26,473 bases of DNA. Origin: a virus (taxonomy: Duplodnaviria; Caudoviricetes). Where the stretch lies: the IMG/VR virus record IMGVR_UViG_3300020042_007512, positions 1 to 26,473 of that record; one strand, written 5' to 3'. Below, one piece after another: positions 3,753-14,912 of the stretch (positions are counted from its first letter, which is position 1; each line of letters starts with the position of its first letter). Under the pieces are notes generated by a model that was given only the letters and a program-made list of their open reading frames with translations, did no database searches and was not told the DNA's origin. The translations under genes were made by a program, and so were the position numbers.

Positions 3753-4190
3753 TTAATATTTAATTGTTAAACTATCTGCTGAATATTTAATACTTACTTT
3801 AGGTACATCATTACCATAGGCATCAATTACATCTTGTTTTAACGCAAGTTTTAATAATTCTTCACGTTCTTTTAAATCTGCATTTAATTGCAACCAAATT
3901 AAATCATCTGAAAATTGTATCATTTGCCTACCATTTACAGGGTTAATTTCTATTCCGTATGCAATTTGTTTTTCACGTGGTAAACTTGCCTTTAATTCAT
4001 CTCTAACGTTGCTTATTGAAGTTGTTAAACGTTCTGCCTGTGCAAACGCTTCTACTTTGTCAATTTCACCTGCATCGATTAGATTTTTAGCGAATGTTTT
4101 AGATGATAATTCTAATTCCTTTTTGCTTGGTAAAAAATTAGACGTTGCAATTTCTTGCATTTTCATTAATTCATAAAGATTTTTACTCAT
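3753..4190 (-). CDS. Hypothetical early protein
   Basis: 145 aa ORF directly after a promoter box, with an A-rich start region. Confidence 0.8.
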   Translation of the reverse strand: MSKNLYELMKMQEIATSNFLPSKKELELSSKTFAKNLIDAGEIDKVEAFAQAERLTTSISNVRDELKASLPREKQIAYGIEINPVNGRQMIQFSDDLIWLQLNADLKEREELLKLALKQDVIDAYGNDVPKVSIKYSADSLTIKY

Positions 4191-4218
4191 AATATTTTGT
4201 TTTTAATTAATAATACTG

Positions 4219-4537: not shown

Positions 4538-5182
4538 TTAAAATAATTTAGTTTGGTTAGTGTGGTTTTTAATACGCTCTATTGCTTTGTCGTAATACTC
4601 TTTGTCTAACTCACAAGCAGTCAATTCAAATTTATAATCGTGGCAAGCTATTGCTATTGAACCTGAACCTAAATGTGTATCTAATATTTTATCGTTTTCT
4701 TTTGCGTATTTATCTAATATCCATTTATAAAGTGCTACGGGTTTTTGTGTTGGGTGTATTCTTATTTCTTTGTTCTTCATATCACCTTGTAACATTCCAT
4801 TCCAAGTGTATTCAAATATCTGTACACTTTTATGTGTAGAACATATAGCAACTTCACCTTCGCCAAATGCAGTGCCGTTTTTATTCCAAACAATTACTCC
4901 ACCACATAAACCTAAAAAATTACCCCCCCATATTATTTGATTCTTACTTACTCTTTCAAGTTCTAAATAATATTTATTATCAGGTGCTATATTCTCAAAT
5001 AAATGATACCCTTTTCTTTTAGTAGCTTGTTTGTTTTGCTTTTTATTATCAGTTAAACCTATTGCATCTATATTACCATAAGGTGGGTCTACTATTGCTA
5101 AATCAAAATAGTTATCAGGATAACGAGCCATTAAAAGCATATTATCCTCATTTGTAATTGTTATTTTATCTGTTATTTGCAT
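4538..5182 (-). CDS. DNA adenine/N4-cytosine methyltransferase (N6_N4_Mtase, beta class)
   Basis: DPPY motif IV, IIWGGN, HPTQKPVALY, SAM-binding ILDTHLGSGS, CELDKEYY. Confidence 0.95.
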   Translation of the reverse strand: MQITDKITITNEDNMLLMARYPDNYFDLAIVDPPYGNIDAIGLTDNKKQNKQATKRKGYHLFENIAPDNKYYLELERVSKNQIIWGGNFLGLCGGVIVWNKNGTAFGEGEVAICSTHKSVQIFEYTWNGMLQGDMKNKEIRIHPTQKPVALYKWILDKYAKENDKILDTHLGSGSIAIACHDYKFELTACELDKEYYDKAIERIKNHTNQTKLF

Positions 5183-5560: not shown

Positions 5561-5776
5561 TTAAATTTTAGTTATTATTTCGTTTTCTACTAATATCAAA
5601 TCTTTTTCAATTAAACCTTTTTGCTTTAGTAATTTAGCAAGGTGTACAGCTTCTTTTAAATTGTATTGCTTTTTCTTTTGATAGTGTATTAGTTGAGTAC
5701 TTACTCCTGTGTGCTTACTTAACCTGTATGCGGTTAAGTCTGTTTGTCTTAATAACTGTTCGATAGCGTTGCTCAT
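5561..5776 (-). CDS. Small Cro/XRE-like helix-turn-helix protein
   Basis: LTAYRLSKHTGVSTQLIHY is a typical HTH pattern. Confidence 0.65.
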   Translation of the reverse strand: MSNAIEQLLRQTDLTAYRLSKHTGVSTQLIHYQKKKQYNLKEAVHLAKLLKQKGLIEKDLILVENEIITKI

Positions 5777-6309
5777 TATATTTTGTTTTTAATAGTTAAT
5801 AATTTATTTTTATATGCAATTGATGCTTCTTCTACTGTTTTAAAATAACCTAAATGAGTATTTTTTTTATTAATAAAAATTTTAGAGCAATAATTATTAT
5901 CTCTTTTATAAAAATAAACACCAGTAGGTAAGCCACTTTTTTTAGTTCTTTCTTTAGACATATTTTCTCTATGTGATATAACTCTTAAATTATTAATATT
6001 ATTATTTGAAGTATTACTATCAATATGGTCAACTACTTGATTAGGAAAATTACCAAATTTATAATCTAAAAATGTTGCTGCCATTAATTGTTGAATTTGA
6101 ATTACTTTTATTCCAAGTCCTTTTATACTAATTCCAATTCTTTGATACCCACTTGGAAGTGATTTTAATTTACTGAAATCAATTTCTCCAATAAAAAAAT
6201 TTTTAGTATTTTTAAATAACCAATTTTTATTAATTTTTCTAACTTTTCCACAAGTTGTTACTTCTACATTTGTTTCTAATCCGTTATAATAAACTGCTTT
6301 CCATTCCAT
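5776..6309 (-). CDS. HNH homing endonuclease with C-terminal AP2 domain
   Basis: VVDHIDSNTSNNNINNLRVISHREN (HNH_3) followed by TGVYF...HLGYFKTVEEA..AY (AP2); NUMOD4-like N-terminus. Confidence 0.9.
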   Translation of the reverse strand: MEWKAVYYNGLETNVEVTTCGKVRKINKNWLFKNTKNFFIGEIDFSKLKSLPSGYQRIGISIKGLGIKVIQIQQLMAATFLDYKFGNFPNQVVDHIDSNTSNNNINNLRVISHRENMSKERTKKSGLPTGVYFYKRDNNYCSKIFINKKNTHLGYFKTVEEASIAYKNKLLTIKNKI

Positions 6310-6482: not shown

Positions 6483-6690
6483 AAAATAATTCCATTAAAT
6501 TGTTTATAGTAATTTCTTTTTTTGTTGTTTCTTGCAATACTCTGTACGCATTTTCTACTGATAAATTCATACAGCTAATTTCTGTTTCAAGTGTAGTAAT
6601 TAATTTTTTACCTATGTAAGGATACTGTTGTTTGTAAAGTAATAATTTACCTTTGTTTTCATCTGTTAATTTTTCATAAAGTTTTTTCAT
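6472..6690 (-). CDS. Hypothetical early protein
   Basis: 72 aa ORF with strong A-rich start region. Confidence 0.7.
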   Translation of the reverse strand: MKKLYEKLTDENKGKLLLYKQQYPYIGKKLITTLETEISCMNLSVENAYRVLQETTKKEITINNLMELFYDN

Positions 6691-6743
6691 AATATTTTGT
6701 TTTAAAGTTAATGCAGTTTATAGTATGCTGCTCCACTTTGTTT

Positions 6744-8375: not shown

Positions 8376-9578
8376 TTAAAAAATTATTGGGTTAATGCTT
8401 TTTTGTTTTTCGTAATAATTAAATATTATAAAGCTGCTGCTTGTGTTTTTGAAGTTTGTTTTAACCCAATCACTTGGCGGTGAAAATGCACCAAAGTTTT
8501 GGTATTCAAAAGCAGATGATGAAGTAAAATCTAAAAGTAATTGATGGCTATCTCCTTTGCTAAATTCTATTGTGTAATTATGCAACCTGTATTCATCAAT
8601 GTAGTTTTTAATCTTTTCAATTTGTACTGCATCTAAATGTGGTTTAAAACCAAACTTCATATTTTTATCATCTTTTCCGTGTGATAAAATAAAACATCTG
8701 TTTTCTACGATATAATGGTCGATAAATTTTCTTTGATTAGTTACCTTAACGTTATCATATTTAAGCTCTATATACGCTTTAAAAGCACTATTAACGATAT
8801 ATCCAAAACTTCCTGCGTGGTTATCATTACAAATATTAATACATTCTATACTATTGTAGTAAGGAATTAAAGTATCAATCATTTTAATTTTAAAAACTAA
8901 CCCAACATCAAACGCTTTTTGGTTATCCATATTTTGCGGTAAACTATGCCCACCACGTGTAGTAACTGCATCGTAACCATCCATAAAATCGCCTAATTCG
9001 TGAATTATTAATGTATCTGATTGCTTGTTTACTAAAGTTTGTGCAACCATAGTTTCTAAACGATTGTTTAACTCTAATTCATTCCAAGCACCATCGTATA
9101 AGCTGTAACCATTTTGGTTTACTTCCATACCTACGTGAACATCAGTATAAACTAATCTGTCAAAAATTGATAAATCTAATTTACGTTCTATTTTAGGTAA
9201 TTTAATCGGTACAACTAAATCTTTAAAAATGTTAGTAAAATCAATTTCTTTTTCTAATTCTACTTCCGTTTGTGGTTCTATGTATTCAGGGTTCTTTACA
9301 AATATGCTGCTTTGTTTTGTTTTAAGCCACATATGTTTTACCGAAGTGTTTGGTACATCTAACTCGTTTGTAGCGTTGTAAATACCCTCGTGTTGGTCTA
9401 ATAATCTGGCTCTGTGTCTTTTAATATAAGTGCGAAGTAAATCTACATCTTTATTAACATTACCACCATCGTTAGTGTTTAATAATCGTTTTGCAATTTC
9501 AGTATCAGTACAGTTTTTATTATCCTGTAATAATTCAGTTAAATTAGCATCGTAATCGTTCCATTTTGAAATTCTCAT
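8376..9578 (-). CDS. Calcineurin-like metallophosphoesterase with N-terminal extension
   Basis: Five metal-binding motifs: YTDVHVG, LGDFMDG, NDNH, SHG, GDSHQ. Confidence 0.85.
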   Translation of the reverse strand: MRISKWNDYDANLTELLQDNKNCTDTEIAKRLLNTNDGGNVNKDVDLLRTYIKRHRARLLDQHEGIYNATNELDVPNTSVKHMWLKTKQSSIFVKNPEYIEPQTEVELEKEIDFTNIFKDLVVPIKLPKIERKLDLSIFDRLVYTDVHVGMEVNQNGYSLYDGAWNELELNNRLETMVAQTLVNKQSDTLIIHELGDFMDGYDAVTTRGGHSLPQNMDNQKAFDVGLVFKIKMIDTLIPYYNSIECINICNDNHAGSFGYIVNSAFKAYIELKYDNVKVTNQRKFIDHYIVENRCFILSHGKDDKNMKFGFKPHLDAVQIEKIKNYIDEYRLHNYTIEFSKGDSHQLLLDFTSSSAFEYQNFGAFSPPSDWVKTNFKNTSSSFIIFNYYEKQKSINPIIF

Positions 9579-9602
9579 AATTTATTTGTTTAAAAGTTTC
9601 AA

Positions 9603-9633
9603 CAAATATATTAATTTTTTTTGTATAAACAAA
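9603..9633 (-). promoter_or_regulatory. Bacteroidetes sigma70-type promoter for the metallophosphoesterase operon
   Basis: Minus strand TTTG (9633..9630)-N19-TATATTTG (9610..9603). Confidence 0.8.
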
Positions 9634-9650
9634 TATTTTTGTTATATTTG
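9620..9650 (+). promoter_or_regulatory. Divergent Bacteroidetes sigma70-type promoter with no downstream ORF
   Basis: Plus strand TTTG (9620..9623)-N19-TATATTTG (9643..9650). Confidence 0.7.
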
Positions 9651-9654
9651 CATA

Positions 9655-9717
9655 TCATAATTTTGTTTTAAGTTAATAATAAGAAAAAACCCTTGCAGTA
9701 TATGTAAGGGTTTTTTT
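9655..9717 (+). ncRNA. Candidate small RNA of about 60 nt, antisense to translation-initiation regions
   Basis: Bounded by a consensus promoter and a hairpin-U7 terminator; no ORF; body CATAATTTTGTTTTAAGTTAATAAT is complementary to early-gene start regions. Confidence 0.55.
9684..9717. terminator. Bidirectional rho-independent terminator
   Basis: AAAAAACCCTTGCA-gtata-TGTAAGGGTTTTTTT, immediately after the endolysin stop. Confidence 0.85.
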
Positions 9718-9721
9718 GATT

Positions 9722-10096
9722 TTACCAACGAGCTTTTACTCCTCGAATATCATAATGTACAAAGTTTGGATATATTCCTATACCGCCCTGCTGCATTTTA
9801 CCATTTGCTATTAAACCCTCAATTATTTTTGCAACTTCTTTAGGTGTCATACCTTTTACAGTAATATCAGAAGCATTGCCTTTTAAATGTTGGCTATCTT
9901 TAACACCACCTATTTTTTTATTGTAGTCTGGCGACCTGTATGCAGAATTAATAATAATTGTTTTACCAATAGCATCACGTAAGACTTGTAAATTTTTAGC
10001 TAATTTAATAATGTTAATCATTACATCGTTTGGCATTGTAGAACCATCTTTACAATTAAATTCTTCTAAAGTAAAATTAGTCGTTATTTTTGCCAT
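9722..10096 (-). CDS. Endolysin, peptidase M15 (Zn-dependent, Peptidase_M15_3-like)
   Basis: NFTLEEFNCKDG, SAYRS..YN...GG...SQH..GNASD, GGIGIYPNFVHYDIRG..ARW; ATG 10096 (MAKITTNF) preferred over the track start. Confidence 0.93.
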   Translation of the reverse strand: MAKITTNFTLEEFNCKDGSTMPNDVMINIIKLAKNLQVLRDAIGKTIIINSAYRSPDYNKKIGGVKDSQHLKGNASDITVKGMTPKEVAKIIEGLIANGKMQQGGIGIYPNFVHYDIRGVKARW

Positions 10097-10250
10097 CGTT
10101 CCTTTTTTTAATTGTTTCAATAGTTTTTAATACTGTGTAAAAAATAGAAGCTATTAATAAAACTATTTTTAGGGTGCTTTCTATATTTGAAAAACTTAAC
10201 ATCATAGTTACTGTGTTTAGAAAATATAATTTTAAATCGTTATGCGACAT
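10077..10250 (-). CDS. Small membrane protein, holin/antiholin-like (57 aa)
   Basis: Not in track; MSHNDLKLYFLNTVTMMLSFSNIESTLKIVLLIASIFYTVLKTIETIKKR...; hydrophobic segments with a basic tail; next to the endolysin. Confidence 0.7.
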   Translation of the reverse strand: MSHNDLKLYFLNTVTMMLSFSNIESTLKIVLLIASIFYTVLKTIETIKKRNDGKNND

Positions 10251-10440
10251 TTTTAGCTTTCATTAAACGTTCAACAATATTAGTAACTCCCTCTATAGTT
10301 ATGTAAGAAGTAGCAATAATAACCCAATCAGTAGAAGTAATAACTCCAGAGAATAAACCTGCTGAAGCTATTACAAAAACAGTTAGTTTTCTACTTAACC
10401 ACTTACTTAATATAAAATCTATTTTTTCTTTACTGCTCAT
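10240..10440 (-). CDS. Putative holin
   Basis: WLSRKLTVFVIA...WVIIATSYITIEG..: SRK motif and two hydrophobic segments; in the lysis cassette. Confidence 0.75.
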   Translation of the reverse strand: MSSKEKIDFILSKWLSRKLTVFVIASAGLFSGVITSTDWVIIATSYITIEGVTNIVERLMKAKNVA

Positions 10441-14369: not shown

Positions 14370-14377
14370 TATATTTG
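14370..14377 (+). promoter_or_regulatory. -7 box for the HNH gene
   Basis: TATATTTG 22 nt upstream of ATG 14400; no correctly spaced -33 TTTG. Confidence 0.5.
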
Positions 14378-14399
14378 TCAAAACAAAAACAAAATAATT

Positions 14400-14912
14400 A
14401 TGAAAATATGTTCAAAATGTAAAGTACAAAAACCTTTTGAAGAATTTAGTTTTAGAAAAGACCAAAATAAATATAGGGCAGATTGTAAAGAATGTAAAAA
14501 AAAATCATTAATATTATGGAGAAAAAATAATATTGTAAAATTAAAAATTTATAATAAAAAATATTATAATAAAGATTATAAAAATAATAGAAAAAAAAAT
14601 GATATTTTATTCAAATTTAATTGTGGTGTAAGAAATAATATATATTTTGCTTTCAAGCGTGGCACAAATCAATTTAAAAAAACTGCTAATACCGAAACTA
14701 TATTAGGTTGCACAATAGAAGAATTTAGAAATTACATAGAAAGTAAATTTACAGATAATATGTGTTTTGAAAATCACGGAGAATGGCATTTAGACCACAT
14801 AATACCATTAGCATCAGCAAATACAGAAGAAGATATTATTAAATTAAATCATTACACTAATTTTCAACCATTGTGGGCATTTGATAATTTAAGTAAAGGT
14901 TGTAAATATTAA
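14400..14912 (+). CDS. Free-standing HNH endonuclease with N-terminal Zn ribbon
   Basis: CSKC...CKEC; WHLDHIIPLASA...LNHYTNFQPLWAFDNLSKG; the only credible plus-strand gene. Confidence 0.88.
   Translation: MKICSKCKVQKPFEEFSFRKDQNKYRADCKECKKKSLILWRKNNIVKLKIYNKKYYNKDYKNNRKKNDILFKFNCGVRNNIYFAFKRGTNQFKKTANTETILGCTIEEFRNYIESKFTDNMCFENHGEWHLDHIIPLASANTEEDIIKLNHYTNFQPLWAFDNLSKGCKY

Follow-up and report, generated by a model that had tools for sequence, protein, structure and literature searches.

A candidate anti-start-codon small RNA gene in the endolysin–phosphoesterase gap of a Flavobacteriaceae-type phage

What is encoded in the 143-nt gap between the endolysin and phosphoesterase genes of IMG/VR virus record IMGVR_UViG_3300020042_007512? 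The DNA of interest (hereafter the window: all 26,473 nt analysed) is the whole 26.5-kb virus genome record, 82% complete, with a GC content of 24–36% across its length. Its protein matches point to phages of Flavobacteriaceae. Of the 44 called genes, 43 lie on the minus strand; the sole plus-strand gene (14370–14912, endonuclease VII/HNH) has its own promoter and is inserted among the head genes. Neither a sigma factor nor a clear repressor is present among the genes examined in this 82% complete genome.

The gap contains a plus-strand unit, which an initial annotation had proposed to be the gene of a trans-acting, anti-initiation small RNA (sRNA). Our favoured reading, held with moderate confidence, is that the unit is a stand-alone gene for a ~62-nt sRNA resembling FopS of Bacteroides, predicted to act as a delayed brake on the phage's own early genes. 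With phage and host target classes taken together, the unit quite probably encodes a pairing sRNA.

Anatomy of the unit

The promoter, seed and hairpin strings of the initial annotation were all found where it had placed them, and the anatomy that it described is present between 9620 and 9717: a plus-strand promoter, followed by a weakly folded anti-AUG stretch, followed by a hairpin and U7 (Table 1). Two elements had escaped it: a minus-strand promoter that overlaps the plus-strand promoter, and the place of the hairpin directly after the endolysin stop codon.

Table 1. Coordinates of the unit, its neighbours and its leading predicted targets in the window.
Feature	Position	Strand	Details
Metallophosphoesterase-like gene	8376..9578	-	400 aa; PHROG 22398/704; calcineurin-like annotation in homologs; divergent neighbour of the unit
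Divergent promoter, phosphoesterase operon	9603..9633	-	overlaps the plus promoter back-to-back; kept in close relatives
15-codon micro-ORF	9611..9658	-	rejected as a gene
Bacteroidota primary-sigma promoter	9620..9650	+	-33 TTTG at 9620-23; 19-nt spacer; -7 TATATTTG at 9643-50
Predicted sRNA, ~62 nt	9655..9717	+	5' end (9655-9656) inferred from promoter spacing; 3' end from terminator
Single-stranded seed	9655..9682	+	anti-AUG at 9656, then U-rich tract and GUUAA; from fold and pairing
Intrinsic terminator	9684..9717	both, likely	hairpin core 9690-9710; T7 at 9711-9717 (U7 on plus)
Peptidase M15 endolysin gene	9722..10096	-	convergent neighbour of the unit
Best predicted target	4187..4215	-	promoter-proximal leader and AUG of the first gene (145 aa) in the recombination/replication block; -18.7 to -19.3 kcal/mol
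Second predicted target	6687..6712	-	start region of a 72-aa presumed early gene; -17.3 kcal/mol
Third predicted target	5773..5801	-	start region of a 71-aa HTH gene (weak HTH_11 match); -16.0 kcal/mol

The -7 box fits the Bacteroidota consensus TAHHTTTG, for which transcription is described as starting 4–5 nt downstream (PMC6847099). Full -33/-7 promoter matches number five in the window, against 2.1 expected; on its own, a promoter match is weak evidence, and the case depends on comparison. The predicted RNA folds at -19.4 kcal/mol (z -4.7), with a stability that comes wholly from the terminator: the 5' 36 nt alone reach -0.9 kcal/mol and have an open centroid. The hairpin core is more stable on the plus strand than on the minus strand (-10.7 versus -5.1 kcal/mol; a G-U pair on the former is an A-C mismatch on the latter). 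Read on the minus strand, the hairpin lies 5 nt beyond the endolysin stop, so it is likely also to serve as the terminator of the late operon. RNA data come from one metatranscriptome (0.05 share), in which the contig of a relative spans 9145–10324; this contig is unstranded and uninformative on the sRNA.

A different candidate regulatory element lies elsewhere in the window. The minus-strand stretch 2963–2830, which precedes gene 2788 and the replication block, combines a promoter with two hairpins, one 5' and one in a terminator, that have complementary loops (fold z -4.1). It looks like an attenuator or kissing-loop leader; an Rfam search with it gave no match. The same design, in other letters, stands before many genes in related phages (loci L020, L022, L024, L027, L028, L040, L068 and L069).

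Recurrence in phages and in bacterial genomes

Among the closest phosphoesterase loci (phosphoesterase at least 74% identical), 17 of 18 carry the unit; overall, once chance-looking rows had been dropped by eye, it is found in about 25 of 80. A wider search used a pattern of -7 box, anti-AUG and GTTA, and left the terminator unspecified. The pattern matched about 150 viral stretches, versus 25 for a permuted control; 120 of the former were listed, and the 117 new loci among them were read. Among the matches listed, a terminator follows within 45 nt for 48 of the 74 distinct hits, while a weak hairpin accompanies 1 of 17 distinct hits to the permuted control. Cassettes of promoter, anti-AUG and terminator, which the initial annotation had suggested looking for in related phages, are widespread, and terminators follow them more often than in the control. 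A looser pattern returned mostly chance and gene-start matches.

Alignment of 43 units revealed two points. Firstly, CATA is invariant (in part a product of selection by the pattern), and in 41 of the 43 the RNA strand forms the more stable hairpin, a count that is biased by selection. Secondly, the terminators are unrelated in sequence; a consensus structure over the 43 units contains no pairs, because the terminators do not align. The distance from -7 box to anti-AUG in relatives is 5–7 nt, sometimes 12–14 nt, and the predicted RNA is 57–75 nt long. Across 36 related genomes, the unit often adjoins an endolysin, phosphoesterase or lipoprotein gene, and it either opposes its neighbours or lies just behind a co-directional gene. 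In some phages it could therefore also be a 3' UTR product. There is one copy in the window, and one or two per phage.

The unit is also carried by cultured phages. In morran9-1, the promoter and seed lie at the start of the record and the terminator at its end, between amidase and phosphoesterase genes; 46 records of LMO6/LMO9 phages contain a match to this 150-nt stretch, and in 28 of these records the match spans at least 80% of the stretch. The LMO6/LMO9 Flavobacterium phages are described as lytic, with circularly assembled genomes (PMC7077304). The unit was not recognised in phage P12024S, nor in the 8.9 kb of Nekkels_1 examined.

Two further arrangements were observed at related loci. 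After the lysis genes of several phages (L087, L089 and L090, about 10–190 nt past the endolysin stop; L088; and G002:C1:17346-17500), small-RNA-like units stand in tandem: a second promoter-terminator RNA, of different and non-anti-AUG sequence, adjoins the seed unit. At L085, L084 and L086 the phosphoesterase is a mosaic, of which the N-terminal 150 aa are about 58% identical to those of the window and the rest is unaligned in the best match; the upstream RNA unit is near-unchanged.

The pattern also occurs in cellular genomes. In GTDB contigs, a terminator follows 32 of 115 distinct pattern hits, and 26 of these 32 have one seed in common; 14 of the 26 are titled Sphingobacteriaceae. Five Sphingobacteriaceae genomes contain 4, 15, 22, 23 and 40 seed matches, compared with 0 control matches; inspection by eye showed 24 of 25 such matches to be flanked by a hairpin, and none to be the start of a long ORF. 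This multicopy family (L471, L490, L504, L489 and L507 in genomes G051–G055) has a terminator loop that is C-rich and conserved, and its predicted targets are SusC genes; it has no Rfam match. Of 201 Flavobacterium genomes, only 2 contain the strict pattern, and the unit therefore looks phage-borne in that genus. A search of one Flavobacterium genome with the 21-nt seed image, allowing three mismatches, gave two hits versus three for the control. No description of the unit in this phage group or in Sphingobacterium was found in the open-access literature.

Predicted targets in phage and host

The mechanism that we propose has four steps: (i) the host-type promoter would transcribe the ~62-nt RNA soon after infection, (ii) the unstructured 5' seed would pair over the AUG and A-rich leader of promoter-proximal, presumed early phage mRNAs, (iii) this pairing would block ribosome loading, and (iv) the RNA, as it builds up, would restrain early and replication genes (4190, 6690, 5776) with a delay. 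Host mRNAs with a like leader motif, including those of TonB-dependent receptors, would be side targets. Masking of the A-rich leader and AUG should be enough to repress because Bacteroidota initiate without Shine-Dalgarno pairing; that start-region pairing blocks initiation would follow the precedent of FopS and GibS (PMC11697453, PMC7366714). We infer transcription, pairing in vivo, timing and the direction of the effect.

Pairing energies were computed with ViennaRNA duplexfold (rather than IntaRNA) on simple first-ATG gene calls, such that some starts may be wrong. Genes 4190, 6690 and 5776 are the three best partners among the 44 start regions of the window. Their mean of -17.3 compares with -10.9 for dinucleotide shuffles of the seed and -11.8 for shuffles in which the anti-AUG was kept; in neither set were any of 300 as good. 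The same three lead for 5' ends of 9655–9657 and with folding counted (0 of 25 as good). Pairing no better than that of shuffled controls, which the initial annotation had named as a ground for refutation, is hence not what we find. It had also likened the seed to the start regions at 6688, 4188 and 9576: the first two are indeed top targets, while the third, that of the phosphoesterase gene, is weaker (-13.1 kcal/mol). The start region of a methyltransferase-like gene at 205 ranks fourth or fifth among the predicted targets; this gene (1–205) and a second (4538–5182), both on the minus strand, have near-identical N-termini.

The start of the 145-aa gene is the top target in several relatives too; family and function searches with this gene gave nothing. 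Its leader (4190) is short and lies directly behind a host-type promoter, so that the seed would cover nearly all of it. More generally, promoter-proximal genes pair better: 27% of 60 reach -14 or lower, versus 10% of 1055 others (p=0.0006). Early and late genes are weakly separated, with p=0.04 for the window and p=0.05 for morran9-1. Across 22 distinct seeds, the fit to the own genome is about 1 kcal/mol better than to other genomes (p=0.0002), a result that stands when each clade is represented by a single genome (13 genomes, p=0.0003). Within eight close genomes the fit is not significant (p=0.17), and for several seeds the best pairing within the own genome is poor (-13.5 to -14.4 for G027, G034 and G023). 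Covariation of cassette and target, for which the initial annotation had suggested a search, was not found in strict form in the close clade: seed and orthologous leader do not change strictly together. A leader dialect shared through the host could account for the fit across clades. The locus is a recurrent promoter-seed-terminator unit under plus-strand selection, with a complementarity to start regions that lies above chance.

For comparison with host genes, we took the 715 genes in 800 kb of a Flavobacterium genome that is not that of the known host. The best site in this sample reaches -16.9, with 1.5% of genes at -14 or lower, and the top two phage targets outpair every one of the 715 start regions. 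Six TonB receptors, from 37 of 51 large proteins classified, have a mean rank of 149/715 for the window seed (p=0.007), compared with 345 for shuffles (1 of 40 as good). TonB receptors were ranked above the midpoint by 20 of 22 phage seeds, and the Sphingobacterium seed places 14 SusC genes at rank 77/328 (p=0.0002; 2 of 60 shuffles as good). As phage early leaders and receptor leaders both rank high, the motif read by the seed is common to the two.

These ranks, together with the reported repression of SusC by FopS (PMC11697453), lend themselves to a possible, if unlikely, alternative: the RNA pairs as proposed, and the targets under selection are host mRNAs, chiefly those of SusC/TonB-dependent receptors, as for FopS. 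The cell would then make less receptor or nutrient-uptake protein, which would bring about superinfection exclusion or release ribosomes; the seed would match phage leaders incidentally, through a strong-leader motif that they share with host mRNAs. However, the receptor ranks come from six receptors, among partly classified large proteins, in a genome other than that of the known host; the phage's own top targets are predicted to bind more strongly than any sampled host gene; and a phage that braked its own early leaders perfectly would bear a cost unless the brake were of use.

It is improbable that the function resides in the DNA, the RNA being a by-product of competition between the plus promoter and the overlapping minus promoter, or of late read-through colliding at the shared terminator. 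The promoters do overlap back-to-back, and in the close clade the terminator is common to the endolysin gene, but the fixed anti-AUG seed, the result with the permuted control and the above-shuffle pairing would be left unexplained, and in many distant phages the unit is co-directional with the upstream gene and has no divergent partner. Very improbable, in our view, is mimicry of host FopS/GibS-type sRNAs, whereby the RNA would titrate a host RRM protein (RbpB-like) instead of pairing with mRNA. The resemblance of the seed to the FopS 5' region, which RbpB binds (PMC11697453), fits such a role, but the rarity of the strict pattern in Flavobacterium means that no host family to mimic was seen, and a sponge would have no need to fit the leaders of its own phage across clades. 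It is scarcely credible that a translated micro-ORF starts here on the minus strand (ATG 9658), as the initial annotation had considered against its own finding of no ORF, or that the unit is the leftover leader of a deleted gene. Read on the minus strand, the sequence does make a good Bacteroidota start region with an AUG, but frame and length shift among relatives (5, 19, 2, 12 and other numbers of codons, ranging from 2 to 45), no minus-strand promoter lies between terminator and leader, and the unit is found again in unrelated contexts, in the same direction as its neighbours or in the opposite one. A type I toxin-antitoxin system was also rejected; no conserved small hydrophobic ORF lies beside the unit, and the predicted targets are dispersed.

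Relation to known sRNAs and implications

Three results support the reading as a trans-acting, anti-initiation sRNA: the unit is conserved although its terminators are unrelated, the permuted-seed control gave few hits, and the pairing is far better than that of shuffles. The term "undescribed", which the initial annotation had added, was overstated: FopS and GibS of Bacteroides share the architecture and mechanism, repressing by masking of leader and AUG (PMC11697453, PMC7366714). FopS is a paralogous sRNA family of Bacteroides thetaiotaomicron (Rfam RF04319), and one Bacteroides-targeting phage is mentioned as a carrier (PMC11697453). Like FopS (~65–70 nt), the unit has a canonical primary-sigma (sigma-ABfr) promoter, a similar size, a single-stranded 5' seed that contains an anti-AUG and covers start regions, and an intrinsic terminator. 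Pairing with TonB/SusC start regions is predicted to be enriched, albeit in a genome other than that of the known host. The unit differs from FopS in (i) being single copy in the window, where FopS and the Sphingobacteriaceae family are multicopy, (ii) belonging to a Flavobacteriaceae-type phage, (iii) having its anti-AUG at the very 5' end, and (iv) having the phage's own genes as best predicted targets.

By eye, the window seed agrees with the published FopS 5' consensus (R1') in 18 of 23 columns, although the stretch is rich in A and U, and a likeness of this kind would be expected of any anti-start sequence. The RF04319 model (gathering cut-off 56 bits), run on the unit's own genome, does not pick up the unit at E<=10, and its best hit there (17.7 bits) is an ordinary gene start; the seed likeness can therefore be convergent. 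None of 16 other genomes has a hit above the cut-off, and three related cassettes score 17.6–20.8 bits. GibS similarly has an AU-rich, extended, unstructured 5' seed over start codons, in a phylum without Shine-Dalgarno sites, but differs in its length (145 nt), non-canonical promoter, second seed and metabolic host targets (PMC7366714). An Rfam search of the window returned no family at gathering score, c4 included.

The c4 RNA of P1/P7 is structured and forms part of temperate immunity. Along with P22 sar and lambda OOP, it resembles the unit as a short phage RNA with its own promoter and terminator that represses phage expression by pairing; sar and OOP are cis-antisense to a single gene (PMC12197685). 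The unit overlaps no conserved gene, and its predicted targets are 3–5.5 kb away and imperfectly paired. Unlike sar, OOP and c4, its one unstructured seed is predicted to read, in trans, a leader motif common to several genes; unlike c4, its cultured carriers are reported to be lytic (PMC7077304).

We offer one broader view, tentatively: that anti-start-codon sRNAs of the FopS design are a phylum-wide Bacteroidota device, present as 4–40-copy families in Sphingobacteriaceae chromosomes and adopted by many small lytic phages as a single master RNA beside the lysis genes; by reading a leader motif common to its targets, this RNA would shut the phage's own early genes without a protein repressor and at once silence host TonB receptors. 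Given that neither a sigma factor nor a clear repressor stands among the genes examined, a motif-reading sRNA would, if true, offer protein-free timing of early gene expression. It would also carry the FopS/GibS mechanism beyond gut Bacteroides hosts, into aquatic phages and Sphingobacteriaceae, and the cultured lytic Flavobacterium phages of strains LMO6/LMO9, which bear the unit, make direct testing possible.
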